A stretch of DNA of 64,000 bases from an uncultured Acidobacteriota bacterium (GCA_963717945.1 CAVQXT010000003.1:385880-449879), one strand, 5' to 3'. Positions 3,019 through 53,703 are shown, counted from the stretch's first letter. The notes: generated by a model not told the origin, from the sequence alone. Translations and numbers: made by a program.

Positions 3019-3072
3019 CAGGCTGGGCCGTCAACGCACTCGAGAAACGGGACGACCGGACCGATTCTCGGC

Positions 3073-4461: not shown

Positions 4462-4517
4462 ACAGCAGCATACCCCACCGCGAATCGGGCGAGATCGCAG
4501 ACGCCTCGCTGGCGTTC

Positions 4518-4994: not shown

Positions 4995-5168
4995 GTTCGC
5001 GTGCTCCTTGTGCTCGATGGAGGTGAACACCGCCCACTCTGCCAGTGTAAGCGAGCCCAAGGCAGATGATGGCGTTCCGCGCCGGCGCCACCTCAGCCGG
5101 CCGTATGCCCCCGCTTGATCGGCGCCCGCGTCTAAGTTACTGTGCGCGCCACCGAAAGGAATGTCCCC

Positions 5169-13569: not shown

Positions 13570-15756
<2,187 letters not shown>

Positions 15757-36621: not shown

Positions 36622-36709
36622 GGCATAAGCATAGCCGTACTCTGTTATCGTATCCTTCGATCCGGCGCGCCAAGGTTGTCGTCCCCGCTTCTTCCTGGTG
36701 GAGGTGCCC

Positions 36710-38390: not shown

Positions 38391-39548
38391 TCATTGCTTG
38401 AGCCCCTTGGCGAGCGCTTCCAGATAGGCCGCCAGGTTCTTCATCTCGCCGGGCTCGAACTTGGGCCAGAACGAGGTGCGCTCGGCCATCGTGCGGTGCA
38501 TCGCGGGGGCGTGATTCCACATCGCCGAGGCCAGGCCGGCGCGGTCGGTGCGCCGGGCCAGGCCGGCCAGGTTCGGCGCGCCGCCGCCGTCCTTGTGGCA
38601 CGACGCGCAGCCCTTCCTGTCGAACACCGCCGCCCCCGCCTTCGGGTCTCCCTCCTGCCCCACGTAGCCGAGGAAGTAGAGGTCGGCGATGAGGTCCGCC
38701 ATCTCCGTGCCGGTGAACTGCGGGAACCTGATCCCTTTCGCTCCCATCCGCGCGCTCATGGCGTAGCTGTGGTCCCACAGCAGCCCGGTGATCTCGGACG
38801 CGGTCTTCGAGAGCGTCGAGCGGGCGAGGTCCGGCGCCGACCGCCCGGGTCCGTCGTGACACGCGCCGCAGCCCTTGCTCCGGTAAACCGCCGCTCCCCT
38901 GGTCGGGTTCGGCAGCGGCTCCAGGACGACGTCGCGTCCCGGCCGCTGGCCCTCGGCGCGGATGAAGGCCTGGATGTCGGCCATGTCGTGCCCGGAGAAC
39001 TCCGGGATCGGCGTGCCGGTGCGCACCTGCGCCTGCTGCATGCGCGGGCCGGCGTTCCACATCGCCTGCGCCAGCGCCGTTGACGACGTGAAGGCGCTGA
39101 AGCGATCGAGCGCGCCGCCCATGTCCCCGCCGCGCTTTCCGAGCGAGTGGCAGCTGACGCACTGCAGCCGGGCGTAGGTCTGCGCGCCCCGCGCCGCGTC
39201 GCCCGGCTCGTCGAACAGGCGCAGGTAGTAGAGGTAGCTCAGGATGTCGGCCATCTCCGCCGGGTCGAGCGTCGGCCACGCCTCGCCGAGCCGCGACACC
39301 CGGTCGATCATCTGCGGCGTGTGGTTCCAGAAATCGCCGACCAGCTCGTAGAACGACTTGCCGGCGACCGCCACGCTCATCTCGGGGCCGAGGTGCCCGC
39401 CGTGGCCCCAGACCGAGTGGCACTCGGTGCACCGCTTCTCCTCGAAGCGCTGCCGGCCGAGGAACGGGTTGCCCTCCTGGGCCGACGCCGGGCCGGCCGC
39501 GAGGGCCGCCACGACGGCGGCCGCCGCCGCGAAGGCTCGTGTGCTCAT
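38391..39548 (-). CDS. tetraheme c-type cytochrome (four class I-like domains), periplasmic
   Basis: Signal peptide MSTRAFAAAAAVVAALAAGPASA. Four CxxCH motifs (CTECH, CVSCH, CGACH, CASCH) are spaced about 100 aa apart, and each is followed by a W(N/D)Hxxx M-type segment. The start overlaps the NrfD-like stop as ATGA. Confidence 0.9.
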   Translation of the reverse strand: MSTRAFAAAAAVVAALAAGPASAQEGNPFLGRQRFEEKRCTECHSVWGHGGHLGPEMSVAVAGKSFYELVGDFWNHTPQMIDRVSRLGEAWPTLDPAEMADILSYLYYLRLFDEPGDAARGAQTYARLQCVSCHSLGKRGGDMGGALDRFSAFTSSTALAQAMWNAGPRMQQAQVRTGTPIPEFSGHDMADIQAFIRAEGQRPGRDVVLEPLPNPTRGAAVYRSKGCGACHDGPGRSAPDLARSTLSKTASEITGLLWDHSYAMSARMGAKGIRFPQFTGTEMADLIADLYFLGYVGQEGDPKAGAAVFDRKGCASCHKDGGGAPNLAGLARRTDRAGLASAMWNHAPAMHRTMAERTSFWPKFEPGEMKNLAAYLEALAKGLKQ

Positions 39549-40897
39549 CGCTCCACCGCCGCCATATCGTCGGGAAGGTACGACGCCACGCGCTCGGAGA
39601 CCTCGTGCACCGACAGGTCGCGGCCCTCCTGGATCTCCCAGATCGAGATGATCGGGAAGAACTTGGTCGCCACCATGTAGACCAGGACGAACCCGGCCAG
39701 CGTGCCCGCCATGATCGACAGCTCGACCCACGACGGCATGTAGTGCACCGACGCCGCCTGCAGCCGCGGGTGGAGCGAAGTCGGGACGACGATGTTGAAC
39801 CGCTCCAGCCACATGCCGATGACGACCGCGATCGACGCGACGACGCACCCGGTCACGTTGCGCGTCTTCCGGCGCGCCATCAGCGCGAAGGGGATGAAGA
39901 AACAGCAGGCCACCATCGTCCAGAACGGGATCGCGAACTCCCCGGTCAGCTTGGCGTAGAGCGTGGCCAGCTCCGACGCCTCGCCGCCGTACCAGACGGT
40001 GAGGTGCTCGGCGAAGGTGAAGTAGAACCACAGCACCGTCGTCACCAGCAGCAGCAGCCCCATGTTGTTGAAGTGCACGTCTTTGAAGTACGCCTCGAGG
40101 CGGTAGACGCGCCGCAGGATCGCCATCGCGATGATGAGCGCCGCGATCCCCGAGAAGATGGCGCCGACGACGAAGTAGGGGCCGAAGATCGCGCTGTGCC
40201 ACATCGGCTTCAGCGTCAGCGCGAAGATCCAGCCGATGACGGTGTGGACCGAGACCGCGACCGGGATCACCGCCACGGCGAGAATCCCGATGATCCGCTC
40301 GAGCGTCGCGCGGGCGGCCGGCGTGTCGTGGTAGCCGATCGCGAGGAACGAGTACAGCGCGCGGGGGCGGAGCCCGAGGTCGCGGATGCGCGCGAGGTCC
40401 GGGATCATCGGCACGTACAGGTAGACGGAGCTGGCCGTGAAGTAGAGCGTGATGCTCAGAACGTCCCAGAGGAGGGGCGAGAACGGCTGCGAGTGGAGGA
40501 AGATGTTCAGCACGCGGTCCGGCCGGCCCAGGTCGAGGATCGGCTGCACGGCGCCGAAGCCGATGACGAGCACCGTGATGAACTCGGCCGACCGCGTGAT
40601 CGACCGCCGCCACTCCGCGTTCGCCACGCGGAGGATCGCCGAGATGAGCGTGCCGGCGTGCGAGATGCCGATGAAGAACACGAAGCAGATGATGTAGATG
40701 CCCCAGTACTCGGGCGTGTTCAGGCCGGTCGCGCCCAGGCCGTCGCGCAGCTGGTAGGCGTAGGCGAAGGCGCCCCACAGGGCGACGGCGGCCATCAGCG
40801 CGGCCCAGCGCCAGAACACCTTCGTCGTGCGCACCAGCGGCATGAGCAGCACGCGCTCGTCCTGGGGCAGCTTCGAGACGATTTCAAGATCGGTCAC
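39545..40897 (-). CDS. NrfD/PsrC-family integral membrane quinone-interacting subunit
   Basis: 450 aa with a GTG start and about 10 TM helices. The N-terminal region FWRWAALMAAVALWGAFAYAYQLRDGLGATGLNTPEYWGIYIICFVFFIGISHAGTLISAILR is typical of NrfD/PsrC/ActC. Confidence 0.88.
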   Translation of the reverse strand: MTDLEIVSKLPQDERVLLMPLVRTTKVFWRWAALMAAVALWGAFAYAYQLRDGLGATGLNTPEYWGIYIICFVFFIGISHAGTLISAILRVANAEWRRSITRSAEFITVLVIGFGAVQPILDLGRPDRVLNIFLHSQPFSPLLWDVLSITLYFTASSVYLYVPMIPDLARIRDLGLRPRALYSFLAIGYHDTPAARATLERIIGILAVAVIPVAVSVHTVIGWIFALTLKPMWHSAIFGPYFVVGAIFSGIAALIIAMAILRRVYRLEAYFKDVHFNNMGLLLLVTTVLWFYFTFAEHLTVWYGGEASELATLYAKLTGEFAIPFWTMVACCFFIPFALMARRKTRNVTGCVVASIAVVIGMWLERFNIVVPTSLHPRLQAASVHYMPSWVELSIMAGTLAGFVLVYMVATKFFPIISIWEIQEGRDLSVHEVSERVASYLPDDMAAVER

Positions 40898-40901
40898 AGC
40901 A

Positions 40902-41585
40902 CTATTCCCGTCGTGACAGGTAGTAGACCTTCGGCTCGGTGCCCAGCCCCTCCTGGAGGCGGAAGGCGCGCGGGTCGCGCGCCAGTTCCGCGACCCGGTG
41001 CGCCGGGTCGTCGAGATTGCCGAACACGATCGCCCCGGTCGGGCAGCTGTCGGCGCAGGCGGTCGTGAAGTCCTGCTCGCGCAGCGGGCGTTTCTCGACC
41101 CGCGCGTTCTCCCGCGCCTTCTGCAGCCGGTGGCTGCAGAACGTGCACTTCTCGATGACGCCCACCGGCCGCACCGACACGTCGGGGTTCAGCCCCGGCA
41201 GCGTCGACTCGGGGTGATTCGGCCGGTGCCAGTTGAAGTACTTGACGGTGTACGGGCAGGCGTTGGCGCAGTACCGGCAGCCGATGCACCGGGCGTAGAT
41301 CTGGTTGACGATCCCCTCGCGGTCGATCGACGTCGCCTGCACCGGGCACACCAGCGTGCAGGGCGGCCGGTCGCAGTGCATGCACGGCTGCGGCACGAAC
41401 CGCGTCCTGAGGTCCGGCCACTCGCCCTCGATGTCCACGCGCACCTGCATCCACGAGATCGTGCGGTGCTCGGCGGCGGCCTGCGACCCCCCCACGGCGA
41501 CGTTGTTCTCGGACCGGCAGGCCACCTCGCACGCCTGGCAGCCGTTGCACTTGTCGAGGTCGATGACCATTCCCCAGCGGGCCAT
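40902..41585 (-). CDS. 4Fe-4S ferredoxin-type iron-sulfur subunit (PsrB/NrfC/DmsB-like)
   Basis: MARWGMVIDLDKCNGCQACEVAC..., CMHCDRPPCTLVCP, CIGCRYCANACP, CTFC and CADSCP give four Cys clusters. Confidence 0.92.
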   Translation of the reverse strand: MARWGMVIDLDKCNGCQACEVACRSENNVAVGGSQAAAEHRTISWMQVRVDIEGEWPDLRTRFVPQPCMHCDRPPCTLVCPVQATSIDREGIVNQIYARCIGCRYCANACPYTVKYFNWHRPNHPESTLPGLNPDVSVRPVGVIEKCTFCSHRLQKARENARVEKRPLREQDFTTACADSCPTGAIVFGNLDDPAHRVAELARDPRAFRLQEGLGTEPKVYYLSRRE

Positions 41586-41595
41586 GCCAGTCTCC

Positions 41596-43992
41596 TCAGA
41601 GCCGGATCACTCGCACTCGCGTCGACGGCCAGTCCGGCAGGCCGCTCACCGGATCGACCGCCCGGCCCACCGCCGAGAGCGGGTTGGCGCCGTTCGGCTC
41701 GCCCCACCCCTCGTCGTTGCTCGGGGCGCCCTGAGCCTCTGGAAGGGCGACGCGAGAGTGCAGGCCGTACGGCACGCTGACGACGCCCGGCTGCGCGCCG
41801 AGCGTCACCCGGACGGTCGCCTCGAACCGGCCGCGGCTCGATTCGACCCGCACGCGCTGGCCCGACTCCAGCCCCGCACTGCGCGCCGTCTCGGGGCCAA
41901 TCTCGATCCACGTCTCCCACGCGCTGCCGTTGAGCGCGCCGAGGTGCTCGAGCAGCCACGGCATCAGGGGCGTCCCGCCGGACGCGAGCGTCATAACGCG
42001 GAACGGGACCAGCTGCAGGGGAAATTCGCGGAGCCCGTTGTCCTGCGCCTGCGGCGACGCGTCGATCGGGAGGAACCCCTCCGCCAGGGCGCGGCCGGAC
42101 TTCGCCAGGCGCTCCCTGGCCTCGACGGGGAACATCCAGACGCGGCCGTCGGGGAGCTGCGACCGGCCGGCGCCGTCCTCGTAATCGACCAGCGGATCGA
42201 ACCAGCCGCCGGACTCGACGATGGTCTGCCAGAACTCCTCGGGCTTCTGCCCGTGGGGAAGCCACCAGCCGCGCCCCTCGACCTCGCCCAGCTCGCGCTG
42301 CCTGAATCGATCGACGAACGCGCTCCCCCGTCCGGCGCTCGCCAGCGAGAGGCCGCGCTCGTGGACCAGGTCCTCGACCGACTTCCACCGGGCCCACGCC
42401 GCCGCGCTCCCGCCCATCCGCGACGCGAGGCCGAGGATGACGTCGCCGGTGGCGCGCGTGTTCACCAGCGGCTTGACGACGGGACGGACCACGCCCCACA
42501 CCGGCGAGGGCACGGCGGCCGGCGCCACGGCGTCCTGCCAGCGTTCGAGATACGTGTGGTCGGGCAGGATCAGGTGGGCCGATCGCGCGCTCTCGTCGAA
42601 GAAGGGAGAGAACGACACGACCAGCGGCACCCGCGCGAGCGCCTGGCGGGCCGCCTCCGGATCGGGCAGCGAGGCCACCGGGTTCGCGTGGTAGAGGAAC
42701 AGGACCTGCGTCGACCCGGCGGCGTGGCCCTCGCCCGATGGCCAGGTCGTCGCCGTGAGCGGCGCGCTCGCGAGATCGATCTCGCCCGGCGCCCTGCGCT
42801 CGGCCGGGCCCGGCAGCGGCGGCATCGGGCCCTGCACCAGCAGCCCGCCCGGCCGGCCGAGCCGGCCGGTCAGCGTGTTGAGCGCGTGAATGGCCAGCGC
42901 GTCCGACAGGCCCCCGGTGCGCCACGCGACCGCCTGGTCCCACACCGCCACGGCGCGCCGCGCGCCGCCGAACTGCTTGGCGAGCGCGGTGAGCGTCGCC
43001 ACCGGCACGCCCGTGCGCGCCGACACCTCGTCCGGGCGGCCGTGCCTCAAGACCAGCGTCCGGAAGCCGACGTGCGTCACGCCGTCCGCGCCGGTCCAGT
43101 CGTCCCAGCCCGCCACCTGCCGGGCGACCTGGTCGGGGTCGTAGAGCCCTTCCTTGACGATGACGTAGGCAAGGCCCAGCGCGAGCGCGCCGAACGTCCC
43201 CGGCCGGACCGCGACGAACTGGTGCGCGCCGACCGCGGTTCGAGACAGCCGGACATCCACCTGCACCCAGCGCGGCGACCGGCCGGGAGGTTCGGCGTCG
43301 CGGGCGCGCGCGGCCTGGAGCGGCGACCACCAGGCGTCCGACAGCGCCGCGCCGAAGGAGAGCACGAAATCGGCGCCGGCCAGATCGAACGCCGGGGCCG
43401 TCGCGATCCCCTGGCACAGGCGCATGAGGTCGGCGGACCCGTCCCGGTAATCGTCCACCGACACGCGCGTCGTCCCCATGACGCCGCAGAATCCCGCGAG
43501 GAGTTCGCCCATGACGCCGGAGACGTCCCCGACCATCCACTCGACCGGCGTCGCGCCCCCGGGCCGATACGCGGACTCGAGCGCCGACGCGACGCGATCG
43601 AGCGCCGCGTCCCATCCGATCGGCTTGAACTGGTCGGACCCGGGCGGCCCGACGCGCACCAGCGGCCCCTTCAGCCTCGCGGGGTGATAGAGCAGCTGGA
43701 GTCCCGCGCGCCCCTTGGGGCACAGCCCGCCCTGGCTCACCGGGTGGAGCGGGTTGCCGTCGATGCGGACCGGCCGGCCGTCGATGAGGCGGACCCTGAT
43801 CCCGCAGTGCGCGGGGCACAGCAGGCACGTGGAGGCGACAAACGTCTCGTCGTTCGGCGCCCAGTCCGGTCCCACGTGAGGCGAGGCCAGCGGGAACTGA
43901 TGCGAGAGGGCGCCGAGGCCGAAGCCGATGCCGGCACCCGCCGCGCCGACCAGGAAGCTCCGTCGGGAAATGGCCACCTCGCGCCCCCTCAC
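41596..43992 (-). CDS. Tat-exported molybdopterin-oxidoreductase-family catalytic-type subunit (PsrA/ActB1/QrcB-like)
   Basis: The GTG at 43992 overlaps the upstream stop as GTGA. It has a twin-arginine signal (AISRRSFLVGAAGAGIGFG) and an intact FS0 motif CLLCPAHC-x27-C. The rest is MopB-like, with a C-terminal beta-barrel domain (RVRVESSRGRFEATVRVT). An alternative GTG lies at 43977. Confidence 0.88.
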   Translation of the reverse strand: MRGREVAISRRSFLVGAAGAGIGFGLGALSHQFPLASPHVGPDWAPNDETFVASTCLLCPAHCGIRVRLIDGRPVRIDGNPLHPVSQGGLCPKGRAGLQLLYHPARLKGPLVRVGPPGSDQFKPIGWDAALDRVASALESAYRPGGATPVEWMVGDVSGVMGELLAGFCGVMGTTRVSVDDYRDGSADLMRLCQGIATAPAFDLAGADFVLSFGAALSDAWWSPLQAARARDAEPPGRSPRWVQVDVRLSRTAVGAHQFVAVRPGTFGALALGLAYVIVKEGLYDPDQVARQVAGWDDWTGADGVTHVGFRTLVLRHGRPDEVSARTGVPVATLTALAKQFGGARRAVAVWDQAVAWRTGGLSDALAIHALNTLTGRLGRPGGLLVQGPMPPLPGPAERRAPGEIDLASAPLTATTWPSGEGHAAGSTQVLFLYHANPVASLPDPEAARQALARVPLVVSFSPFFDESARSAHLILPDHTYLERWQDAVAPAAVPSPVWGVVRPVVKPLVNTRATGDVILGLASRMGGSAAAWARWKSVEDLVHERGLSLASAGRGSAFVDRFRQRELGEVEGRGWWLPHGQKPEEFWQTIVESGGWFDPLVDYEDGAGRSQLPDGRVWMFPVEARERLAKSGRALAEGFLPIDASPQAQDNGLREFPLQLVPFRVMTLASGGTPLMPWLLEHLGALNGSAWETWIEIGPETARSAGLESGQRVRVESSRGRFEATVRVTLGAQPGVVSVPYGLHSRVALPEAQGAPSNDEGWGEPNGANPLSAVGRAVDPVSGLPDWPSTRVRVIRL

Positions 43993-44525
43993 CTGTGACA
44001 GGCGATGCAGTTGGCCGGCACGTTCCGCCGCTCGTGGCAGTCGGTGCACGTCTTCATGACGATCTGCACCAGCGGCCGCGGCGGCGGGGCCGTCGTGTCG
44101 GCGATGGCGCCGTGGCAGGTCGCGCAGGGCAGGCCGGCCACGGTGACGTGGCGCCGGTGGGAGTAATACACGTGGTCGGGCAGCCGGAACGTCTTCCGGA
44201 ACACCGGCGGCGTCGGGCTCGCGGCGAGCGTGATGAGCTTCCGCTCCTCGGGCGACTTGGTCATCGGCTGCTGGTGACACCCGACGCAGAGCGCGAGGTC
44301 GGGCAGGCCCGAGTGCTGGTGATCGGCGTAGTACTGGTGGCAGGTCGAGCAGTCGAGCCCGGCGTCCTTGACGTGCTTCCGATGGTTGAACTGGATCGGC
44401 TGGACGACGGCGCCGTTCGGGTCGAACGCGGCACGTCCGGCGGCGAAGCCCGCGACCGCCATCAGCACGGTGAACGCGCCGAGGGCGAGCCTCCTGGTTG
44501 GACCGAGCTTCTCATCGACGTTCAC
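43989..44525 (-). CDS. membrane-anchored pentaheme c-type cytochrome (cytochrome c3/c7, ActA/QrcA-like)
   Basis: 178 aa with a GTG start and AGGAG upstream. The N-terminal TM anchor is LALGAFTVLMAVAGFAAG. Five CxxCH motifs are present: CSTCH, CVGCH, CATCH, CTDCH, CIACH. Confidence 0.9.
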   Translation of the reverse strand: MNVDEKLGPTRRLALGAFTVLMAVAGFAAGRAAFDPNGAVVQPIQFNHRKHVKDAGLDCSTCHQYYADHQHSGLPDLALCVGCHQQPMTKSPEERKLITLAASPTPPVFRKTFRLPDHVYYSHRRHVTVAGLPCATCHGAIADTTAPPPRPLVQIVMKTCTDCHERRNVPANCIACHR

Positions 44526-44580: not shown

Positions 44581-45069
44581 TCAGGCCGATTCGGCCTGGC
44601 TTCCCGGGTCGAGCGTCCGCTGCAGCTCCCGTGCCCAGAGCGCCTGGAACATCGTGAGACGGCTGACCATCAGTTCCGAGATCCCCGTGCGAACCACGCG
44701 CTCGATCACCGGGTCGGCCGCAAAGAGCTTTTCGAGGTCGAGCCGCCCGAACGCCAGGATCTCGGCGGGCGCCGCCGCGCGTGCCGACAGGGTGAAGCGG
44801 AACGGCCGGACGAGCGCAGACCAGCCGACCGTCTTGCCCGGTCCGACCGCTTCGACGGTGATGTCCTTGACGACGCCTCCGACGTTGATCGGCAGGCACA
44901 GGTCCACCAGACCGCGGACGACGAGGCTGATGTACTGCGCGCTGTCGCCGAGCAGGAAGAGGTAGTCGCCGCTCCCGAGCGACCGCTTCCGCGCGATGGC
45001 GTCCAGGCGCATCAGCTTCGCGGCATCGAGACCGTCGAACAGCTCGGCCGCGCGGAGGGACTCCAGCAT
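44581..45069 (-). CDS. stand-alone cyclic-nucleotide-binding (cNMP/Crp-like effector) domain protein
   Basis: 162 aa. ELFDGLDAAKLMRLDAIARKRSLGSGDYLFLLGDSAQYISLVVRGLV...VGWSALV fits the cNMP-binding beta-roll. There is no C-terminal HTH. Confidence 0.8.
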   Translation of the reverse strand: MLESLRAAELFDGLDAAKLMRLDAIARKRSLGSGDYLFLLGDSAQYISLVVRGLVDLCLPINVGGVVKDITVEAVGPGKTVGWSALVRPFRFTLSARAAAPAEILAFGRLDLEKLFAADPVIERVVRTGISELMVSRLTMFQALWARELQRTLDPGSQAESA

Positions 45070-45284: not shown

Positions 45285-45626
45285 TCAGTGCGCGTGAAGA
45301 GACGTGCCGACCCGGCGGTAGAGGTTGTCCACCGATGGCTGATGGACGAACTGCGCCACCACCGCCTGCTCGAGCCGGACGTGGTGTTCGAGACGGCTGA
45401 CCATCGCCTCGTTGAAGGCCGAAGCGGCCGGCGTGACCGCCCCGTCGGCGGGCGCGAAGAAACCGGGGACGGCGACGATGGCGGAAGCTCTGGCCGCCGC
45501 GTCTCCCAGCCGGCCCTTGGCCTGCCGCGCGCGTTCGGCCTCGCTGCTCTGATAGCCCATCGCGAGCATCAGGACCATCCCTCCGAACAGGACCGCCACG
45601 ACGACAACGACCAGAGCTGATTCCAT
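45285..45626 (-). CDS. small single-pass membrane protein (113 aa)
   Basis: ATG at 45626 with GGGAGG upstream. MESALVVVVVAVLFGGMVLMLAMGY forms a TM helix and the rest is soluble. It sits directly behind a sigma-54 promoter. Confidence 0.65.
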   Translation of the reverse strand: MESALVVVVVAVLFGGMVLMLAMGYQSSEAERARQAKGRLGDAAARASAIVAVPGFFAPADGAVTPAASAFNEAMVSRLEHHVRLEQAVVAQFVHQPSVDNLYRRVGTSLHAH

Positions 45627-45654: not shown

Positions 45655-45669
45655 AGCAAGTCCCGTGCC
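45655..45669 (-). promoter_or_regulatory. sigma-54 (-24/-12) promoter
   Basis: The minus strand reads GGGCACG-GGAC-TTGCT against the consensus TGGCACG-N4-TTGCW, with exact GG/GC spacing. The -12 element lies about 30 nt upstream of the ATG at 45626. Confidence 0.7.
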
Positions 45670-45801
45670 CCGTCGCCGGCCGCGGCGGTCATCCGACGAA
45701 GAGGCGCGAAATGACGGCAGGCAGGGCGCGGAACACGGTGACGGCCGGTCGTGCGGCACGACGGGGGGCTGACGGAACCGACAGGTCGGCCCGCGGCGGG
45801 G

Positions 45802-45817
45802 CTGACAGGAGTGTCAG
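45802..45817. promoter_or_regulatory. candidate enhancer (UAS) palindrome CTGACAG-GA-GTGTCAG
   Basis: TGACA-N4-TGTCA inverted repeat about 135 nt upstream of the sigma-54 promoter at 45669, overlapping the regulator stop codon. A near-identical site lies at 49246-49261. Confidence 0.5.
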
Positions 45818-47223
45818 GATCTCCGGTTCGCCGGGCGATCGGCGGCCGGGCGGCGCGCCGGGGCTCCCCCGCGTTGACGCTCGAGCAGCCGGTAGAAGGT
45901 CCGCTCCGACATGCCGAGCGCGTGAGCGGCCTTCGCCCGGTTCCCGCCCACCTTGGTGAGCACCCACTGGATGTGGCGGCGCTGCATCTCGCGCAGCGAC
46001 GGGATCTCCTCCCCGTCGGGCCGCGCGAGCGTCGGGCCCTCGGGCCGCAGGCTCACCGGCAGGTCCTCGACGTGGATGACGTCGCCGTCGCAGAGCACCA
46101 CGCTCTGCTCGATCACGTGGATCAGCTCGCGCACGTTGCCCGGCCAGCCGTGCCGCTGCAGCAACTCGAGCGCGTCGTCGCCCACCCGCTTGGCGCAGGA
46201 GAAGCGGCGGTTGAACCGCGCGATGAAGTGATCGACCAGGCAGGGGATGTCCTCGGGCCGGGTCCTGAGCGGCGGGATGGTCAGCGTGAAGGTGGCCAGC
46301 CGGTAATAGAGATCCTCGCGGAAATGACCGCGGGCGGTCGCCTGCGTGAGGTCCCGGTTGGTGGCCGCCACGACGCGCACGTCGACGGCGATCTCGCGCG
46401 TGCCGCCGAGGCGGCGGAAGCGGCCCGTCTCGAGCACGCGGAGCAGCTTGGCCTGGGCCTCGGGGCTGGTGTCGCCCACCTCGTCGAGGAAGATCGTCCC
46501 GCCGCTGGCCACCTCGAACAGCCCGTGCTTCAGGCGATCGGCGCCGGTGAACGCCCCCTTCTCGTGGCCGAAGACCTCGGTCTGGAACAGCTCGTCGTGG
46601 AGCGCCGCGCAGTTGACCGCGACAAACGGCGCCTCGCGCCGCCCGCTCTGCGTGTGGAGCAGCGTGGCGACCAGCTCCTTGCCGACGCCGGTTTCGCCCA
46701 GGATGAGCGTGGTCGAATCGGTGCGGGCGATCCGTTCGACCGCGTCGAGCAGCTTGCGGTTGGCGGCGCTCGCGCCGACGAACTCGACGCCGCGGTCGGG
46801 CACGGCGTACCCGTCTTCGAGCACGCGCTGCCGGGTGAGGAGCCGCACGTGCTCGTGCGTCTTCTGGATCGTCATCTCCAGCTTGGCGATCGGGCACGGC
46901 TTCTCGAGGTAGTCGTGGGCGCCGACGCGGATCGCCCGGACCGCCGTGTCGATCGTCCCGTGGCCGGTCAGGACGACGATGCCCGCCGCGACCGACCGGC
47001 GGCGCAGCTCCTCGAGCACGTCGAGGCCGTCCATGTCGGGCAGGCGCAGGTCGAGGAGGATCACGTCCACGTCCGCGCTCGCGGCCGGGTCGAGCGCCTC
47101 CTGGCCGGACGCGCGCGTCTCGACGGCGTAGCCCCGGCGCGCCAGCTCCGCGCCCATGACGCGCCGGAACGCGGCGTCGTCGTCGACGAGCAGCACGCGG
47201 ATCGCGGTGTCGGGACTGGTCAC
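45814..47223 (-). CDS. sigma-54-dependent response regulator (receiver-AAA+-Fis HTH, NtrC family)
   Basis: The GTG at 47223 overlaps the kinase stop as GTGA.
- **Receiver:** RVLLVDDD...DLRLPDMDG.
- **Walker A:** GETGVGKE.
- **GAFTGA loop:** EKGAFTGA.
- **Other AAA+ motifs:** FLDEVG and GNVRELIH.
- **C-terminal HTH:** GNRAKAAHALGMSERTFYRLL. Confidence 0.93.
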   Translation of the reverse strand: MTSPDTAIRVLLVDDDAAFRRVMGAELARRGYAVETRASGQEALDPAASADVDVILLDLRLPDMDGLDVLEELRRRSVAAGIVVLTGHGTIDTAVRAIRVGAHDYLEKPCPIAKLEMTIQKTHEHVRLLTRQRVLEDGYAVPDRGVEFVGASAANRKLLDAVERIARTDSTTLILGETGVGKELVATLLHTQSGRREAPFVAVNCAALHDELFQTEVFGHEKGAFTGADRLKHGLFEVASGGTIFLDEVGDTSPEAQAKLLRVLETGRFRRLGGTREIAVDVRVVAATNRDLTQATARGHFREDLYYRLATFTLTIPPLRTRPEDIPCLVDHFIARFNRRFSCAKRVGDDALELLQRHGWPGNVRELIHVIEQSVVLCDGDVIHVEDLPVSLRPEGPTLARPDGEEIPSLREMQRRHIQWVLTKVGGNRAKAAHALGMSERTFYRLLERQRGGAPARRPAADRPANRRS

Positions 47224-49115
47224 AAGGCCTCCGCGCCCGAGAGGGGGAAGACGACCTCGATGCACGAGCCGCGCCCGACGGCGCTCTCGACCAGCCGGAC
47301 GTCGCCGCCGAAGCGGCGCATGAACCGGCGCGAGAGGAAGAGGCCGAGGCCGGTGCCGTCCGGCTTCTCGGTCCGGAACGGCTCGAACAGGTGTCGCTGG
47401 GCCTCCGGCGGAATGCCGCAGCCGTTGTCGCGCACCTGCAGGCGCACCTGCTCGCCGACGTCGACGCGCACGGCCACCCGCCCGCCGCGCCCGCCGCACG
47501 ACTCGATGGCGTTGACGAGCAGGTTCAGCACCACGTGCTGCACGACCTCGGTGTTGGCCGAGACGATGGGGATCGGGCCGCTCCGGTCGCGGACCAGCTC
47601 GACCTCCGCCGCGCGCGCGGCCGGGGCGGCGAGCGAGAGGACGCCGTCGACGACTTCGCCGAGATCGATCGGCTCGGTGGCCGGCGGGATGCCGCGGGCG
47701 AAACGCAGGAACTGCCGGGTGATCGTGCGGCACCGCATCACCTGGTCGCGAATCACCGAGGCGCTGTCGCGGATCGCCTCGAGCGTGGCGGCGTCGGGCG
47801 GGCCGTCGGCCGGGCCCGGGAGCTGGTCGAGGATCCCCTCGGCGCAGGTGAGCGTCGTGGCGAGCGGCGTGTTGACCTCGTGCGACAGGCCGGACGCCAG
47901 GATGCCCAGCGAGGACAGGCGCTCGAACTCGGCGAGATGCTCCTCACCCCGGACGCGATCGGTGATGTCGCGCCACGCCTCGACCACCTGCCCGACCGAC
48001 CCGTCCTCGGCGTAGACCGGAGACGCGTAGATCTCGTAGATGCGCTCGTCGCCGCCGTCGGACGCGGGCATGCGGTAGGTGGCCTGCGCGAGGCGCCCCG
48101 TGGACAGGCACCGCGCCGTCGGGCACTCGGGGTCGTCGCCGCAGGGCAGGACGTGGCCCGTCACGCGGCGGCACTCCTGCCCGCGCAGCGCGTCGGGATG
48201 CGCGCCGAGCCACGTGGCGATCGACCGGTTGGCCGCGACCACCTTGAAGTCCCGCCCGAGCACGATCAGGCCGTCGTCGAGGCCGTTGAGGACGCCGGAG
48301 AGCTGCTGCTCCCGGCGCTTGATCTCCTCGACCAGGCGCGAGGTCGCGTCGGCCATGGCGTTGAAGTCGGTGGCCAGCGACGCGATCGCGTCGCCGCCCG
48401 AGGTGTCGGCCCGCTCCTCGAGCGCGCCGCCGGCGATGGCGCGCGCGGTCCGCGTGAGCGCCGAGAGCCGCGAGAGGACGACCCGGCGCAGATGCCACCC
48501 CAGGCCGCCGAGCATGACCAGCGCCACGATGCCCGACCCGGCGCCGAGGCGCCAGGCGTCGCTGCGGAACTGCGCCTGCACCTGCGAGAGCGACACGTCG
48601 AGCACCATCATGCCGTTCCAGCGCGTGGCGGGGTCGTGGCAGCGGTGGCATTCCGGGCGGTTCTCGATCGGCAGCACGGTCCTGAGGACGCCGACGCCGT
48701 TCTCCTGGAAGGTGACCCAGCGCTTGCGGTCGGCCGGGCTCTCCGCGTGGCAGACCAGGCAGGTGGGCGACGACCTCGACGTGCGGACACCGACCTCGGC
48801 CGGCCGGCTCGACAGCTTGATGATCCCGTCGTGGTCGACGATCATCGCGCGCAGGACCTCGGGCTCGTGGCCGACGTCCCGGAGAATCCCGCCGATGAGC
48901 CCGGTGTCCCGCGCCAGCATGTCGTGCCGGAGGGCGGTCTCGAGGAGGCGGTTCTCGAGCTCGGCGGCGCCGCGGCGCGCGGCCACGGCGTGGTCGTACT
49001 GAAGGGCAGAGAGCAGGTAGAGGCCGCCGGCCAGCGGACCGAGCAGGAGCAGGCTCACCCCCAGCGCAATCCGGGCCGTGAGCCGCTCGACGTGGGGGAC
49101 TCGCAGGCGTCTCAT
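47220..49115 (-). CDS. sensor histidine kinase: periplasmic di-CxxCH domain, HAMP, Cys-rich PAS, HisKA, HATPase
   Basis: 631 aa.
- **Membrane topology:** two TM helices flank a periplasmic domain of about 160 aa.
- **Periplasmic domain:** contains CLVCH and CHRCH.
- **HAMP:** AIASLATDFNAMAD.
- **PAS:** carries ECRRVTGHVLPCGDDPECPTARC.
- **H-box:** SGLSHEVNTPL.
- **N/G boxes:** NLLVNAIES, DNGCGI, GTGLGL. Confidence 0.92.
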   Translation of the reverse strand: MRRLRVPHVERLTARIALGVSLLLLGPLAGGLYLLSALQYDHAVAARRGAAELENRLLETALRHDMLARDTGLIGGILRDVGHEPEVLRAMIVDHDGIIKLSSRPAEVGVRTSRSSPTCLVCHAESPADRKRWVTFQENGVGVLRTVLPIENRPECHRCHDPATRWNGMMVLDVSLSQVQAQFRSDAWRLGAGSGIVALVMLGGLGWHLRRVVLSRLSALTRTARAIAGGALEERADTSGGDAIASLATDFNAMADATSRLVEEIKRREQQLSGVLNGLDDGLIVLGRDFKVVAANRSIATWLGAHPDALRGQECRRVTGHVLPCGDDPECPTARCLSTGRLAQATYRMPASDGGDERIYEIYASPVYAEDGSVGQVVEAWRDITDRVRGEEHLAEFERLSSLGILASGLSHEVNTPLATTLTCAEGILDQLPGPADGPPDAATLEAIRDSASVIRDQVMRCRTITRQFLRFARGIPPATEPIDLGEVVDGVLSLAAPAARAAEVELVRDRSGPIPIVSANTEVVQHVVLNLLVNAIESCGGRGGRVAVRVDVGEQVRLQVRDNGCGIPPEAQRHLFEPFRTEKPDGTGLGLFLSRRFMRRFGGDVRLVESAVGRGSCIEVVFPLSGAEAL

Positions 49116-49245: not shown

Positions 49246-49294
49246 CTGACAGTTGTGTCATGTCGCGACAACGGTTACTCTGTCATCCATGACA
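49246..49294. promoter_or_regulatory. cluster of three overlapping or adjacent palindromes (candidate enhancer sites) upstream of the decaheme operon
   Basis: - CTGACAG-TT-GTGTCAT at 49246-49261.
- TGTCATGTCGCGACA at 49256-49270.
- TGTCA-TCCA-TGACA at 49281-49294.
- They lie 134-182 nt upstream of the sigma-54 promoter at 49428. Confidence 0.5.
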
Positions 49295-49427
49295 TGCCGG
49301 CGGCAGGCCCGGCTCGTCTTGTCATCGGGCTTCACCCGCGCCCGGGCGTGCGAACCCGTTGACCATCCTTCGCAAATCACACCTTTTCATGCAGCGCCCG
49401 TGCCCGGTCGTCCGGGGCAGCCCGCGA

Positions 49428-49442
49428 GGAACGGGGATTGCT
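49428..49442 (+). promoter_or_regulatory. sigma-54 (-24/-12) promoter
   Basis: AGGAACG-GGGA-TTGCT against the consensus TGGCACG-N4-TTGCW, with correct GG/GC spacing. It ends 73 nt upstream of the ATG at 49515. Confidence 0.65.
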
Positions 49443-49514: not shown

Positions 49515-50492
49515 ATGGTGCGCTTGTCCCGGTTGGGAAGCCTGTCGGCATTCATGCTCATGTGGGCCGCCGCGGCCGCCGCGCAGCAGGGCGGGGCGGT
49601 CAAGGCCGCCCTGGCGGCTGACGAGGTCTGCACCGCGTGCCACAACGAGACGTGGGCGAAGCCGATCCTCGCGATCTACCAGACGCCACACGGCAACAGG
49701 GCCGACCCGCGAACGCCGGGCTGTCGGACCTGTCACGGCCCGAGCGAGGGCCACCTGAGCGACTTCAACACGTCACCCGACGTCGTGTTCGGCGCGGCGT
49801 CGAAGCGGCTGTCGCCGGCCGCCAAGCGCAACGCCTCGTGCCTCGCGTGCCACGACTCGAAGGTGCTGGCGCGGACCAACTGGATCGGCAGCCAGCACGA
49901 GAGCCATGGCGTGGCCTGCACCAGCTGCCACAACATCCACGCGCCCGATCAGAAAGTCCTCGTCAGGGCCACACAGGCGGAGGTCTGCTACGCCTGTCAC
50001 AAGGCCCAGCGCGCGCAGGTCCGCCGCATCTCGGCCCACCCGCTCGCGGTGACCGGCATCGGCAGCCCGCCGAAGATGGTCTGCTCGGACTGCCACAACC
50101 CTCACGGCTCGACCGGCCCCCAGCTTCTCGTCAAGAACACGGTGAACGAGACCTGCTACACGTGCCACGCCGAGAAGCGCGGCCCGTTCCTCTGGGAGCA
50201 CAGCCCGGTCGTGGACAGCTGCGTGAACTGCCACACGCCGCACGGCTCGACCAACGCGGCGCTGCTGAAGGTGCGCGCGCCCTTCCTGTGCCAGGAGTGT
50301 CACAGCGGGGATCACGCCGCGCAGATCAACAGCGGCGCCAACCTCGGCACCGGGGCCGTGACCACGGTCAACGGCGTGCAGCAGCCGGCCGCCGCCGCGC
50401 CGCGGGCGCAGCTCGCCGCCCGCGCCTGCCTGAACTGCCACGTGCTCATTCACGGGTCGAATCACCCGGCGGGGGCCAAGTTCCAGCGCTGA
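49515..50492 (+). CDS. periplasmic decaheme c-type cytochrome, MtrA/DmsE/MtoA/PioA family
   Basis: 325 aa with a signal peptide. Exactly ten CxxCH motifs are present: CTACH, CRTCH, CLACH, CTSCH, CYACH, CSDCH, CYTCH, CVNCH, CQECH, CLNCH. Both the spacing and the size are typical of MtrA-type cytochromes. Confidence 0.9.
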   Translation: MVRLSRLGSLSAFMLMWAAAAAAQQGGAVKAALAADEVCTACHNETWAKPILAIYQTPHGNRADPRTPGCRTCHGPSEGHLSDFNTSPDVVFGAASKRLSPAAKRNASCLACHDSKVLARTNWIGSQHESHGVACTSCHNIHAPDQKVLVRATQAEVCYACHKAQRAQVRRISAHPLAVTGIGSPPKMVCSDCHNPHGSTGPQLLVKNTVNETCYTCHAEKRGPFLWEHSPVVDSCVNCHTPHGSTNAALLKVRAPFLCQECHSGDHAAQINSGANLGTGAVTTVNGVQQPAAAAPRAQLAARACLNCHVLIHGSNHPAGAKFQR

Positions 50493-50496
50493 GCGC

Positions 50497-53238
50497 ATGG
50501 AACCTGGAACGACGAGTATGACCATCAACGCGAACACAATCGGTGCGCGGATCCAGACGATGGCCGCGCGATGGCTGCTTGCCGCGGCGATGATTGTCGC
50601 GGCCGCCGGCCAGGCTGCCGCGCAGGGCGCGGCCCCGCCCGCCGCGCAGGCGGCGAGCCAGCCTGCCGCGCCGAGCGCGAGCGACCTCACCAGGCCCGCC
50701 AGCACCGTGGAGGTCGGCGCGGGAGGCGTGAGCGACGGGTCCTACAAGGCGGGCGAGTACAACGGCCTGCAGAAGCAGGGCGGCTTCTTCATCGGCGATT
50801 TCGACATTCGCGGCGGAGGGGCCTACGACAGCGGCGACGCCACGCGGTACCGCGTCAAGGGCACCGACCTCGGCCTCTCGACGCGCAGCTTCAGCGCGGA
50901 CTACGGCGTGCAGGGCTCCTTCCGCCTGACGTTCGGCTTCAGCGAACTGCGCGCGAACCGGTCCGACAGCTACCAGACGCCCTACAACGGCGCCGGCACC
51001 GACGCGCTGACGCTGCCGGCGACCTGGCTGGTCCCCACGGTGGCGGGGTCCTCCTCCTCCAACAACGCCGTCAACACCACGAGCGCGAGAGGCCTCGTCC
51101 CGTCGATCGCCCTCGCGCCGTACATCGACACCCAGGCCGGGTCACCGACGATCGGCACGCTCATCACGCCCAACGCGACCCAGACCTCGCTCGTCAACGC
51201 CGCGGTCGCGGCCGACCTGCCGCTGTTCCACGGGTTCGGGGTGTACACCACCCGCAAACGCTTCGACGCGGGCTTCAGCCTCAACGTCGGCACCGAGTGG
51301 ACGATCGACGCGACGTTCACGCCCGAGCGCAAGAGCGGGACGAAACTGATGGGGACGGTGTCTCGAACGACGGGCGGCGACATCTCCACCGTGATCCCCG
51401 ACAGGATCGACAGCGGCACCGACCAGATCGGCCTGAACGTCACCTACAGGCACGGGAAGGGCGTCTTCCAGGGCGGCTACTACGGCTCGTTCTTCACCAA
51501 CAACGTCCCCTTCATGTCGTGGCAGAACTGGGCGACGTCGGCGTTCACGACCAACACGATGAGCAGCGCGCCGAGCAACAGCTTCAACCAGATCAACGGG
51601 TCCGCCGCGTACGCCCTCACGCGCACGACGAAGCTGACGGCCTTCGGCGCCTACGGCCGCAATACGCAGGACGACAAGTTCCTCACCGACGCCAGCACGC
51701 CGGTCGTCCCGGTCAACTCGCTCAACGGCCTCGTCGTCAGCTCCGCGTTCAACGTGAAGCTCACCAGCCGGCCCGCCAGGAAGCTGAACCTGACGGCGGC
51801 CTACAAGTTCGACAATCGCGACAACCGCACGGCGATCAACATCTTCCAGTATGCGGACGCCAGCGAGTCGGCTTCGGTGAACGCCAACTTCCCGGCCGGC
51901 CCGACCAACCCGCTCGGCGCGGTCCTCGCCCAGAACGCCAACGCCAATCGGCCCTACAGCAGGAGGCTGAACCAGTTCTCGGGTGAAGCCGACTACGCCC
52001 TGGCGCCCGGGCAGCACGTCACGGCCGGCTACCAGTTCCAGCGGGTCAGCCGCGACTGCCCCGGCTCGTGGATTTCCTGCGCGGATGCCGGGACCACCAA
52101 CGAGCACACCCTCCGCGCCGAGTGGCGGGCCACCGCCGGATCCGCCTGGACCGGCAGGCTCGCCTATGAGTACTCGCAGCGCCGGTCGCCGGACTACAAC
52201 GAGGACGCGTTCCTCGCGCTGGTTCCCTACGCGAGCGTGATCCCGGCCGGGCAGACGATGTCGGCCGTGGAGGCGCTGAACACGTACGGGCTGACCGGCT
52301 ACGGTCCGGTGCAGGGTTACAACGGCGGCGTGTTCGTGAACGGCACCTTCTTCCCGAACAACAACGCCCTCTCGAACAGCCTCTACGCGAACAACAACCG
52401 GATCAGCGAGCTCATCGGCATGCGGCGGTACTACGTCTCCGACCGGAACCGCAACAAGCTGCGCGCCGCGGTCACCTGGATGGCGACCGACGCGTTCACG
52501 CTCCAGGCGGGGCTCGACTACAACAAGGACTCCTACCCGGGCGCGACGTACGGCCTGCAGCGGTCCGACACCTGGGCGGCCAACGTGGACGGGTCGTACG
52601 CGCTCGGCGACAAGGTCAGCGTGGACGTGTACTACACGCTCGAGGCGCTCGGCAACGGCACCGCCGGGAACAGCTACACGGCCAACAGCAACACGGCCGG
52701 CGTCAACGGCTTCACGGCGCTGTCGGGCAACGCGTGCGACGGCTACACGACGCTGCAACAGCGCAACAACAACAACAAGCTCGACCCCTGCCTGAACTGG
52801 TTCACCGACATGGCCGACCGCGTGCACACCGTGGGCGTCGGGCTGAGGGGGAGAATCCAGAAGCTGGACGTGACGGCCAACGTCATGACGAGCCGGGCCA
52901 GCAGCACCAACAACGTCAGCGGCGGGAACTGGGCGAACAACCCGCTGGCGCTCGCCGGCGCGCCCGCCGGGACGGTTGCCGCCTTCTTCATCCCCGCGGC
53001 GGCGATGCCCGCCGTGACCGCGCACGTGTCGGAGATTCGCGTGAACGCGACCTACCCGGTCGCCAAGGGGCAGTCGCTCCGCCTGCTGTATTCCTACATG
53101 CGCACCAACTCGGCGGACTGGCTCTACGAGGGGACGGAGATGGGGCTGGGGACGCCGAGCGGCGTGCTGCCGACAAACGAGCAGCCGTTCGACTTCGCCG
53201 TGCACGTCTTCGCGGTGTCGTACATCGTGCGCTTCTAA
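50497..53238 (+). CDS. MtrB/PioB-family outer-membrane beta-barrel (decaheme-associated porin)
   Basis: Starts 4 nt after the decaheme gene. It has a signal-like MAARWLLAAAMIVAAAGQAAAQ and the N-terminal GVSDGSYKAGEYNGLQKQGGFFIGDFDIRGGG signature. The body is rich in alternating beta-strands with Tyr/Asn/Gly, and the terminal sequence is ...FAVSYIVRF with a C-terminal Phe. The start is uncertain (50497, 50518 or 50560). Confidence 0.8.
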   Translation: MEPGTTSMTINANTIGARIQTMAARWLLAAAMIVAAAGQAAAQGAAPPAAQAASQPAAPSASDLTRPASTVEVGAGGVSDGSYKAGEYNGLQKQGGFFIGDFDIRGGGAYDSGDATRYRVKGTDLGLSTRSFSADYGVQGSFRLTFGFSELRANRSDSYQTPYNGAGTDALTLPATWLVPTVAGSSSSNNAVNTTSARGLVPSIALAPYIDTQAGSPTIGTLITPNATQTSLVNAAVAADLPLFHGFGVYTTRKRFDAGFSLNVGTEWTIDATFTPERKSGTKLMGTVSRTTGGDISTVIPDRIDSGTDQIGLNVTYRHGKGVFQGGYYGSFFTNNVPFMSWQNWATSAFTTNTMSSAPSNSFNQINGSAAYALTRTTKLTAFGAYGRNTQDDKFLTDASTPVVPVNSLNGLVVSSAFNVKLTSRPARKLNLTAAYKFDNRDNRTAINIFQYADASESASVNANFPAGPTNPLGAVLAQNANANRPYSRRLNQFSGEADYALAPGQHVTAGYQFQRVSRDCPGSWISCADAGTTNEHTLRAEWRATAGSAWTGRLAYEYSQRRSPDYNEDAFLALVPYASVIPAGQTMSAVEALNTYGLTGYGPVQGYNGGVFVNGTFFPNNNALSNSLYANNNRISELIGMRRYYVSDRNRNKLRAAVTWMATDAFTLQAGLDYNKDSYPGATYGLQRSDTWAANVDGSYALGDKVSVDVYYTLEALGNGTAGNSYTANSNTAGVNGFTALSGNACDGYTTLQQRNNNNKLDPCLNWFTDMADRVHTVGVGLRGRIQKLDVTANVMTSRASSTNNVSGGNWANNPLALAGAPAGTVAAFFIPAAAMPAVTAHVSEIRVNATYPVAKGQSLRLLYSYMRTNSADWLYEGTEMGLGTPSGVLPTNEQPFDFAVHVFAVSYIVRF

Positions 53239-53313: not shown

Positions 53314-53364
53314 TGAGCCCTGAGCCCTGAGCCGCCCTGGCCAGAGCCTCGAGCCTCGGGCCTA
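53314..53364. repeat. heptamer arrays (TGAGCCC x2, TGAGCCG ... GAGCCTC x2, GGGCCTA)
   Basis: Read directly. The arrays lie between convergent genes and run into the cytochrome c stop codon. Confidence 0.8.
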
Positions 53365-53703
53365 CTTCGCCGCCTTGAGCGTCTGCAGGTAGGCCACCAC
53401 CGCGTCGATGTCGCCCGGCTGCCACGCCACCTTCGGCATCTTGATCTTCTCGTTGGGGAATTCCTTCAGGGGGTCGGCCAGGATCGACTTGATCTTGGCG
53501 GCGTCGAGGCGGTCGGTGACGCCGTCGAGCGGCTTGCCGATCTTGCCGCCCTTGCCCGCGACAAGGTGACACATCGAGCAGTGGTTCTTGACCGCCAGTT
53601 CCTGGCCCTTGGCCACGGCCTTGGCGTCCTGGGCTGCCGCGTAGCCGGACAGCGCCACGGTACACACGACGGCGAGAAGCGTGAAGGAAGTACGTTGTGC
53701 CAT
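53362..53703 (-). CDS. monoheme class I c-type cytochrome, periplasmic
   Basis: 113 aa. Signal peptide MAQRTSFTLLAVVCTVALSGYAAA, a single CSMCH, and a distal Met candidate in KIKMPK. Confidence 0.9.
   Translation of the reverse strand: MAQRTSFTLLAVVCTVALSGYAAAQDAKAVAKGQELAVKNHCSMCHLVAGKGGKIGKPLDGVTDRLDAAKIKSILADPLKEFPNEKIKMPKVAWQPGDIDAVVAYLQTLKAAK

Follow-up and report, generated by a model that had tools for sequence, protein, structure and literature searches.

An MtoAB-type porin–cytochrome pair encoded beside an ACIII/Qrc-like quinone module and a di-haem sensor kinase in an uncultured Acidobacteriota bacterium

How might a decahaem cytochrome–porin pair without a surface cytochrome partner be wired to the quinone pool of an acidobacterium? 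The question is raised by a stretch of 64,000 nucleotides (nt) from an uncultured Acidobacteriota bacterium (GCA_963717945.1 CAVQXT010000003.1:385880-449879), referred to below as the window and numbered from its first letter, in which a gene for a decahaem cytochrome c (A) is closely followed by a gene for a long outer-membrane barrel (B). A sequence-only reading had described the two as an MtoAB/PioAB-like pair without an MtrC partner. We find that the pair is an ordinary, real member of the known MtrAB/MtoAB family, of MtoAB type by architecture. That reading overlooked likely partners nearby, namely a monohaem cytochrome c, a quinone module related to the ACIII and Qrc complexes, and a di-haem sensor kinase with its sigma-54 activator. 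We consider it probable, with some reserve, that the A-B conduit, the quinone module and the haem sensor make up one co-regulated trans-envelope pathway. The pair itself is encoded as follows.

49515..50492, plus strand: mtoA/mtrA-like periplasmic decahaem cytochrome c (A), 325 amino acids (aa), with a Sec signal and ten CxxCH motifs; TIGR03508 and MtrA match
50497..53238, plus strand, probable ATG at 50518: mtoB-like 26-strand outer-membrane barrel (B); PF11854, TIGR03509, AlphaFold2 (AF2) and Foldseek

The open reading frame (ORF) of A encodes 325 aa with exactly ten CxxCH motifs, just as had been read from the sequence, and nothing but a signal peptide stands ahead of haem 1. Its score against TIGR03508, the DmsE-family decahaem model, is 274.7 bits (curated cutoff 192.2). 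The sole PDB sequence match is MtrA (6r2q_A, E=1.6e-65), which aligns over residues 37-325 with all ten haem motifs in register. With a score above the family cutoff and this alignment to MtrA, the proposal that A might be a non-conduit cytochrome fails.

The barrel had been described as a 913-aa frame starting 4 nt past the stop of A. Such a frame does begin at 50497, with no ribosome-binding site upstream of its ATG; the true start is probably the ATG at 50518, which gives 906 aa and a gap of 25 nt, because the public gene call uses this codon and the N-terminal consensus of the homologs (MTTN...) agrees with it. B scores 383.8 bits with PF11854 (cutoff 23) and 327.8 bits with TIGR03509 (cutoff 240.05), so that both members of the pair pass curated family cutoffs. 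Its sole sequence match in the PDB is MtrB of Shewanella baltica (6R2Q, E=1e-20). In the AF2 model, built on 76 homologs (pLDDT 73, pTM 0.68), DSSP assigns 26 long strands of 9-21 residues joined by short periplasmic turns, while residues 1-56 comprise the signal peptide and then a disordered Ala/Pro-rich linker. The best Foldseek match is again 6r2q_B (E=1.7e-38), with a TM score of 0.83 normalised to MtrB, and all other matches listed stay at or below 0.46. A TonB-dependent transporter and an LptD-like protein were considered as different families for B and rejected on the Foldseek scores (TM about 0.4 and 0.23, respectively, against 0.83 for MtrB).

B contains DGSYKAGEYNGLQKQGGFFIGDFDIRGGGAYD / SYKAGEYNGLQKQGGFFIGDFDIRGGG and ends in ...FAVSYIVRF, the YIVRF terminus having been recognised correctly. 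The N-terminal signature described as MtrB/PioB-type is also present, but YKAGEYNG marks the long-barrel subfamily, in which it is invariant, and not Shewanella MtrB, where the aligned stretch differs. The barrel had further been taken to be much longer than MtrB, and it is: MtrB in 6r2q_B has 695 aa and B is about 210 aa longer. Since MtoB and PioB exceed MtrB by about 110 aa (PMC3274759), B also stands about 100 aa above these two. Every long insertion sits in a predicted extracellular loop of the AF2 model.

B residues 148-242: loop L3, predicted extracellular
B residues 437-480: loop L7, predicted extracellular
B residues 557-642: loop L9, predicted extracellular
B residues 719-759: loop L11, predicted extracellular
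B residues 803-832: loop L12, predicted extracellular
B residues 866-891: loop L13, predicted extracellular

Exactly four cysteines occur in B, as the pairs 514/521 and 740/758; they are located in loops, are invariant in the 76 homologs and probably form two disulfides. Shewanella MtrB has an N-terminal CxxC, in place of which the barrel studied here has its two loop pairs. An Asn-rich stretch, LQQRNNNNKLDPC, itself invariant, adjoins one of these pairs. The long loops L3 and L9, in which the model places helices, may cap the extracellular mouth; confidence is low in this part of the model.

Is the adjacency of the two genes real, and how widespread is the pair? A second, independent assembly (public ENA contig L001) has the same gene order at 99.8% identity, and A lies directly upstream of B in all related loci having upstream sequence, which excludes the misassembly that had been named as a possible source of the pairing. 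Over the 22.7 kb shared with this contig (window 40520-63252) there are 30 mismatches and 5 small indels, those located falling outside the genes discussed here; the two are separate assemblies or strains of one population. A word-indexed homolog search at E<=1e-10 recovers 675 relatives of B, many of which already carry the name 'MtrB/PioB family decaheme-associated outer membrane protein'; the best 120 of the 675 measure 794-955 aa (median 892) at 54-86% identity. A separate exhaustive search of 50%-identity representatives at E<=1e-10 gives about 1000 family clusters, the nearest full-length ones with proteins of 864-1008 aa and the remoter ones, at 30-36% identity, of 700-860 aa. The rarity of the pair was therefore overstated: a decahaem protein and a porin without MtrC define the known MtoAB/PioAB type, and hundreds of relatives, of 870-910 aa, are annotated automatically.

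Among species-level genomes, carriers of the long barrel are mostly uncultured Acidobacteriota (Vicinamibacteria, Terriglobia and unclassified lineages) from fen, permafrost, groundwater and Danish soils. The closest genome match, at 85%, is an Acidobacteriota metagenome-assembled genome, which marks the window itself as acidobacterial. Full-length relatives at 44-54% identity are found in Sulfuricella, Sulfurifustaceae and one betaproteobacterium. The betaproteobacterial locus (L017) is arranged as a canonical Mto cluster of monohaem cytochrome, A, B (873 aa) and tetrahaem cytochrome, and its barrel is 44% identical over the full length, which ties the long-barrel subfamily to MtoB; this tie rests on the identity to L017 together with published lengths. 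Homologs of PioA, MtoA and PioB have been reported in Acidobacteria before (PMC10654088), and Mtr-like conduits with surface cytochromes have been described in peat Acidobacteriota (2026 preprint, 10.64898/2026.05.27.727921).

The absence of an adjacent MtrC/OmcA or HiPIP gene, stated in the sequence-only reading, extends to the whole window, where no gene for MtrC/OmcA, Cyc2 or HiPIP was found in the 64 kb. CxxCH motifs occur in only six reading frames of the window (A, the sensor kinase, the pentahaem, tetrahaem and monohaem cytochromes, and an unannotated ORF at 21.4 kb); no ORF other than A exceeds five of them, and no protein with an MtrC domain was found in the 64 kb. The last of the six frames, of 252 aa (21474-22232, plus strand), is coding-like in its third-position GC content (GC3 0.87), holds two CxxCH motifs and has no Pfam match, and could be a chance ORF or a di-haem protein outside the classified families. 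Extra multihaem genes stand beside the pair in some related loci: a second decahaem paralog next to A, 37% identical (L016 7146-8321, minus strand), a six-haem ORF immediately upstream of A (L019 7270-8670, plus strand) and an eight-haem ORF of about 800 aa beside A (L006 2387-4798, minus strand). Any of them might act as a partner at the surface or in the periplasm for which the window has no counterpart.

What, then, could serve as the inner-membrane partner of the pair? No NapC/NirT-family gene (CymA/ImoA) and no CbcL-like MtoC is encoded among the neighbours of A and B. The neighbourhood does hold a small cytochrome gene convergent with B and, on the far side of the regulatory genes, a run of genes on the minus strand.

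53362..53703, minus strand: periplasmic monohaem class-I cytochrome c, 113 aa, convergent with B, conserved in position, candidate shuttle
45285..45626, minus strand: conserved protein of 113 aa carrying an N-terminal transmembrane helix; no family matched
44581..45069, minus strand: cyclic-nucleotide-binding-domain (cNMP) protein, 162 aa
43989..44525, minus strand: membrane-anchored pentahaem cytochrome, ActA/QrcA-like, 178 aa; ActA 8k9e_A at E=2.8e-20, QrcA model
41596..43977, minus strand: Tat-exported molybdopterin-family (Mo-like) subunit, QrcB-like, 793 aa; FS0 Cys motif intact
40902..41585, minus strand: four-cluster Fe-S subunit, ActB2/QrcC-like, 227 aa; C-terminal half of 6f0k_B at E=6.8e-58, QrcC model
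39545..40897, minus strand: NrfD-type integral membrane quinone-site subunit, ActC-like, 450-aa ORF; 6f0k_C at E=9.6e-68
38391..39548, minus strand: periplasmic tetrahaem protein of class-I cytochrome c domains, 385 aa

The last five genes (38391-44525) form a quinone module that is a member of the split-ActB ACIII/Qrc family and a strict member of neither complex, an assignment made because the Qrc models score best yet fall under their equivalog cutoffs. As in ACIII, the NrfD subunit matches ActC, the Fe-S subunit the C-terminal half of ActB, and the pentahaem cytochrome ActA; in contrast to ACIII, ActB is split, only one NrfD gene is present (no ActF), and neither ActD nor ActE could be recognised. 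The likeness to Qrc lies in a four-subunit layout with separate Mo-like and Fe-S subunits, and the best NCBIfam models are QrcA, QrcB and QrcC, all under their cutoffs (87.9/180, 289.5/440 and 301.8/400 bits); the NrfD subunit has no QrcD match among the NCBIfam models. Compared with both complexes, the module adds the tetrahaem class-I cytochrome and is tied in the genome to an outer-membrane conduit. The FS0 motif of the Mo-like subunit reads C-x2-C-x3-C-x27-C, and its best PDB matches are ArrA (1e-34) and PsrA (3e-32), with ActB reached only at about 1e-11 to 1e-13. At 378 aa, the public gene call for NrfD seems truncated: the alignment of the 450-aa ORF to ActC starts at residue 23, and orthologs measure 450-453 aa.

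The monohaem cytochrome keeps its place beside B in five related loci (L002, L003, L004, L018 and L025). Among the PDB sequences that it matches at E<=1 there is no MtoD entry; the protein is possibly an MtoD analogue.

Does the proximity of conduit and quinone module extend beyond this genome? In tblastn searches of the window proteins against 23 loci encoding the long barrel, the pentahaem, Mo-like, Fe-S, NrfD and tetrahaem set adjoins A-B in 14, and it does so in three arrangements. The set is divergent from the pair through the two-component system in four loci (L003, L004, L018, L025), lies directly upstream on the opposite strand in another four (L005, L011, L016, L023), and is colinear in the order A, B, monohaem, pentahaem, Mo-like, Fe-S, NrfD, tetrahaem in the remaining six (L008, L014, L015, L020, L021, L024). 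Identity between arrangements amounts to 31-35% for the Mo-like subunit and 55-64% for the Fe-S and NrfD subunits; the low conservation of the former fits a non-catalytic, QrcB/ActB1-like role. A second start from kinase homologs at 62-68% identity leads to four long contigs, three of which carry in one direction the kinase, the regulator, the 113-aa protein, the cNMP protein, the pentahaem, Mo-like, Fe-S and NrfD subunits and a downstream cytochrome. In two of them the quinone module is followed by a shorter pair (L027 20546-21902, L030 20577-21896), with a decahaem protein of 316-318 aa, 38% identical to A, and an MtrB_PioB barrel of 746-789 aa; the contig of L029 ends before this position. 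In the sister lineage made up of L027, L029 and L030, one conduit module seems to have been exchanged for another while the inner-membrane and regulatory core stayed conserved. A linkage that survives both rearrangement and conduit replacement argues for a functional connection between A-B and the quinone module, short of proving it.

A different, second quinone-type module is found upstream of A in some loci (L010 3791-6548, L012 1780-4482, L020 and L021 at about 3000-6400). It consists of a tetrahaem protein of about 200 aa, an Fe-S subunit 34-36% identical to that of the window, and an NrfD subunit 24-26% identical (L010, L012, L021); L020 and L021 carry it in addition to the ACIII/Qrc-like set.

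Between the two operons, and divergent from A, lie the genes of a two-component system, accompanied by promoter elements on either side.

47220..49115, minus strand: sensor histidine kinase, 631 aa, with a periplasmic di-CxxCH domain, HAMP, a PAS domain with four Cys, HisKA and HATPase
45814..47223, minus strand: NtrC-type sigma-54-dependent response regulator, 469 aa as called (Response_reg, Sigma54_activat, HTH_8)
49427..49442, plus strand: sigma-54 type -24/-12 element aGGAACGGGGATTGCt, 72 nt before the ATG of A
49246..49294, plus strand: two 14-bp palindromes, putative activator sites, about 140 bp upstream of the -24 element
45655..45670, minus strand: second sigma-54 type -24/-12 element GGGCACGGGACTTGCT, 28 nt before the gene of the 113-aa protein
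45770..45817, minus strand: second TGACA/TGTCA palindrome pair with 33-bp spacing, upstream of the second sigma-54 element

Both periplasmic CxxCH motifs of the kinase are present in all of 120 homologs, and H64 and H95 are 97% conserved. The PAS cysteines C315, C325, C331 and C336 are likewise invariant (120/120), which suggests a second, cytoplasmic input of metal, Fe-S or thiol redox type.

The sequence-only reading had placed the pair directly behind a sigma-54 promoter. As a match to the loose consensus, this carries no weight, since a scan for TGGCAC-N5-TTGC with at most two mismatches gives 37 matches against 54 expected and is not above chance. As a predicted promoter the element nevertheless stands: in an alignment of the kinase-A intergenic region from five orthologous loci, the core GGAACG-N4-TTGCT (49428-49442) is kept in all five despite diverged flanks. 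The element and the two palindromes, TGACA-N4-TGTCA at 49247-49260 and TGTCA-N4-TGACA at 49280-49293, with centres 33 bp apart, are among the few conserved islands of this alignment. The second element, GGG[C/A]ACGGGACTTGCT, is conserved in 7/7 loci aligned for the second promoter and probably drives the quinone-module operon. Palindrome pairs stand about 100-140 bp upstream of both -24/-12 elements. A periplasmic haem-based redox sensor, perhaps with the second, Cys-based input from the cytoplasm, may be proposed to activate the A-B and quinone-module operons through sigma-54. Neither sigma-54 control of Mto genes nor a di-haem kinase circuit was found described in a non-exhaustive search of the literature.

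How does the locus compare with the characterised conduits? It resembles MtoAB of Sideroxydans lithotrophicus ES-1 and the Gallionellaceae in a decahaem protein of about 320 aa without N-terminal extension (MtoA has 317 aa, PMC3274759), in a barrel longer than Shewanella MtrB, in the lack of MtrC and in small monohaem cytochrome genes beside the pair. The differences are a barrel about 100 aa longer, an ACIII/Qrc-like complex linked in place of a CymA/ImoA or CbcL/MtoC partner, a monohaem cytochrome without detectable similarity to the solved MtoD, a di-haem kinase and sigma-54 activator of its own, and an acidobacterial host. With MtrCAB of Shewanella (6R2Q) it shares the ten-haem alignment to MtrA and the 26-strand fold of MtrB; unlike that system it has no MtrC/OmcA, and B, about 210 aa longer, shares only 18% identity with MtrB when the structures are aligned. 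PioAB(C) is likewise a decahaem protein with a long MtrB/PioB-family barrel and no surface cytochrome, but A lacks the N-terminal extension of about 200 aa that PioA has (PMC3274759), and no HiPIP (PioC) is found among the called neighbours. The label MtoAB/PioAB-like is therefore apt in its first half, by architecture, and does not hold in detail for PioAB.

What would such a pathway look like? The decahaem wire of A would thread the 26-strand barrel of B as MtrA threads MtrB, so that electrons could cross the outer membrane without an MtrC-type surface cytochrome, and the assembled pair would connect to extracellular iron minerals or humic matter. At the inner membrane, the NrfD/ActC-like subunit of the ACIII/Qrc-like complex would exchange electrons with the quinone pool, the Fe-S, molybdopterin-like and ActA-like pentahaem proteins being its further subunits. 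The tetrahaem and monohaem class-I cytochromes may shuttle electrons across the periplasm between A and the ActA-like pentahaem. The di-haem kinase would read the periplasmic redox state and, through the sigma-54 activator, both operons would be switched on. Precedents exist for parts of this scheme: in Sideroxydans the connection between MtoA and ImoA of the inner membrane is made by the monohaem PmcA (PMC13390432), and for Cyc2 of iron oxidisers it has been proposed that ACIII is the partner in the inner membrane (PMC5566968).

Which way would the electrons run? Outward flow, from quinol to extracellular Fe(III) or humics, is slightly favoured. The competing proposal is that A and B form a strict Mto/Pio-type conduit for Fe(II) oxidation or electron uptake, passing electrons to c-type cytochromes and from these either onward to a terminal oxidase or into the quinone pool, uphill by way of the Qrc-like complex; we regard this as a serious possibility with chances somewhat short of even. 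MtrC-less conduits have been assigned to Fe(II) oxidisers (PMC3274759; PMC8805035), so that the lack of MtrC counts towards inward flow, and so do the 44-54% full-length relatives in Sulfuricella, Sulfurifustaceae and the canonical-layout betaproteobacterial locus, lineages of sulfur and iron oxidisers. The KatG catalase-peroxidase encoded in the window (13582-15756, plus strand) suggests oxygen exposure. The direction of a Qrc-type complex would also agree with inward flow, as Qrc in Desulfovibrio runs from cytochrome to quinone. Set against these points, ACIII-type complexes, the closest solved relatives of three of the subunits, are quinol oxidases; neither oxidase nor carbon-fixation genes are linked to A-B, and no terminal oxidase genes follow the colinear clusters in L014 and L015; and fen, permafrost and soil are habitats where respiration of humics and Fe(III) is expected. 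The sequence itself cannot decide the direction of flow, because MtoA/B and PioA/B form no function-specific clades, and Mtr conduits work both ways (PMC8805035).

The pathway proposed here has observations weighing against it as well. In 9 of the 23 related loci, all three proteobacterial ones included, A-B occurs without the quinone module, and in L026 the genes of the kinase, the regulator, the small protein and the cNMP protein occur with neither module nor conduit. The Mo-like subunit keeps its Tat signal, and its FS0 cysteines are kept everywhere. The palindrome pattern occurs only at the two promoters in 64 kb (expected 0.22), as does the sigma-54 pattern (expected 0.08), but this uniqueness is partly circular, both patterns having been derived from the same sites later scanned, and shows specificity, not independent discovery. 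AF2 confidence is low in the loops of B. Since the Mo-like subunit retains both export signal and cluster motif and finds its best PDB matches in the catalytic ArrA and PsrA, the neighbouring complex could be a separate reductase of a soluble substrate: A-B would then use generic periplasmic cytochromes, and an independent polysulfide, thiosulfate or arsenate type reductase would merely share an anaerobic regulator and a neighbourhood with it, as the loci with the pair or the regulatory unit alone might be taken to indicate. We find this unlikely, because the linkage persists through three gene orders, colinear in many loci, because ACIII is a much closer match to the Fe-S, NrfD and pentahaem subunits than is Psr or Arr, and because QrcA, QrcB and QrcC are the best NCBIfam models; the lower identity of the Mo-like subunit relative to Fe-S and NrfD is explicable by a non-catalytic scaffold. 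Far less credible still is a DmsEFAB-like arrangement, in which the Mo/Fe-S pair, fed by A-B, would be exported and act as a terminal reductase on the outside of the cell. It can appeal to the 'DmsE family' model that A passes and to the Tat-exported Mo-type and Fe-S subunits encoded nearby, yet the DmsA model (dmsA_ynfE) reaches only 149.1 bits against a cutoff of 777.7 and DmsB 83.8 against 214.1, no DmsG/H-type chaperone genes were seen in the window, and on either side of the Mo/Fe-S genes lie those of an ActC-like NrfD protein and a membrane-anchored ActA-like pentahaem cytochrome, the hallmarks of an inner-membrane complex.

The remaining genes of the window are housekeeping or unrelated. 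They encode a methyltransferase, a DEAD-box helicase, a BNR-repeat protein, gamma-glutamyltranspeptidase, an M14 peptidase and the KatG already mentioned, as well as a Ser/Thr kinase, ECF sigma factors, a glucodextranase, an MFS transporter, a TPR protein and an FHA-PP2C phosphatase. The Ser/Thr kinase (16514-19600, minus strand) is a 1028-aa protein fused to PEGA and FGE-sulfatase-like domains, and the FHA-domain PP2C (SpoIIE-type) phosphatase (36698-38344, plus strand) faces the end of the quinone-module operon in convergent orientation.

What does the locus mean for the family and its hosts? With the pair alone, a well-populated family gains one more member. The regulon in its extended form is a plausible candidate for a new variant: no description of MtoAB linked to an ACIII/Qrc-like module was found in a non-exhaustive search of the literature. 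We tentatively suggest, as an idea that is somewhat doubtful in its full form, that soil and peat Acidobacteriota possess a self-contained, redox-sensed regulon for extracellular electron transfer, in which a di-haem kinase and sigma-54 activator co-activate an MtoAB conduit, with unusually elaborate extracellular loops and lacking a surface cytochrome, and a split-ActB ACIII/Qrc complex, the latter replacing CymA, MtoC or ImcH as the quinone partner. If true, Mto-type conduits would be connected to the quinone pool by a novel route, with a candidate inner-membrane partner besides CymA or MtoC. Acidobacteriota are among the most abundant bacteria of soil and peat, and the part that they play in the redox cycling of iron and humics is poorly defined; the long-barrel MtoAB, common in this phylum and repeatedly tied to a quinone module and a haem sensor, offers a concrete, testable pathway and regulatory circuit by which uncultured soil bacteria could exchange electrons with the outside of the cell.

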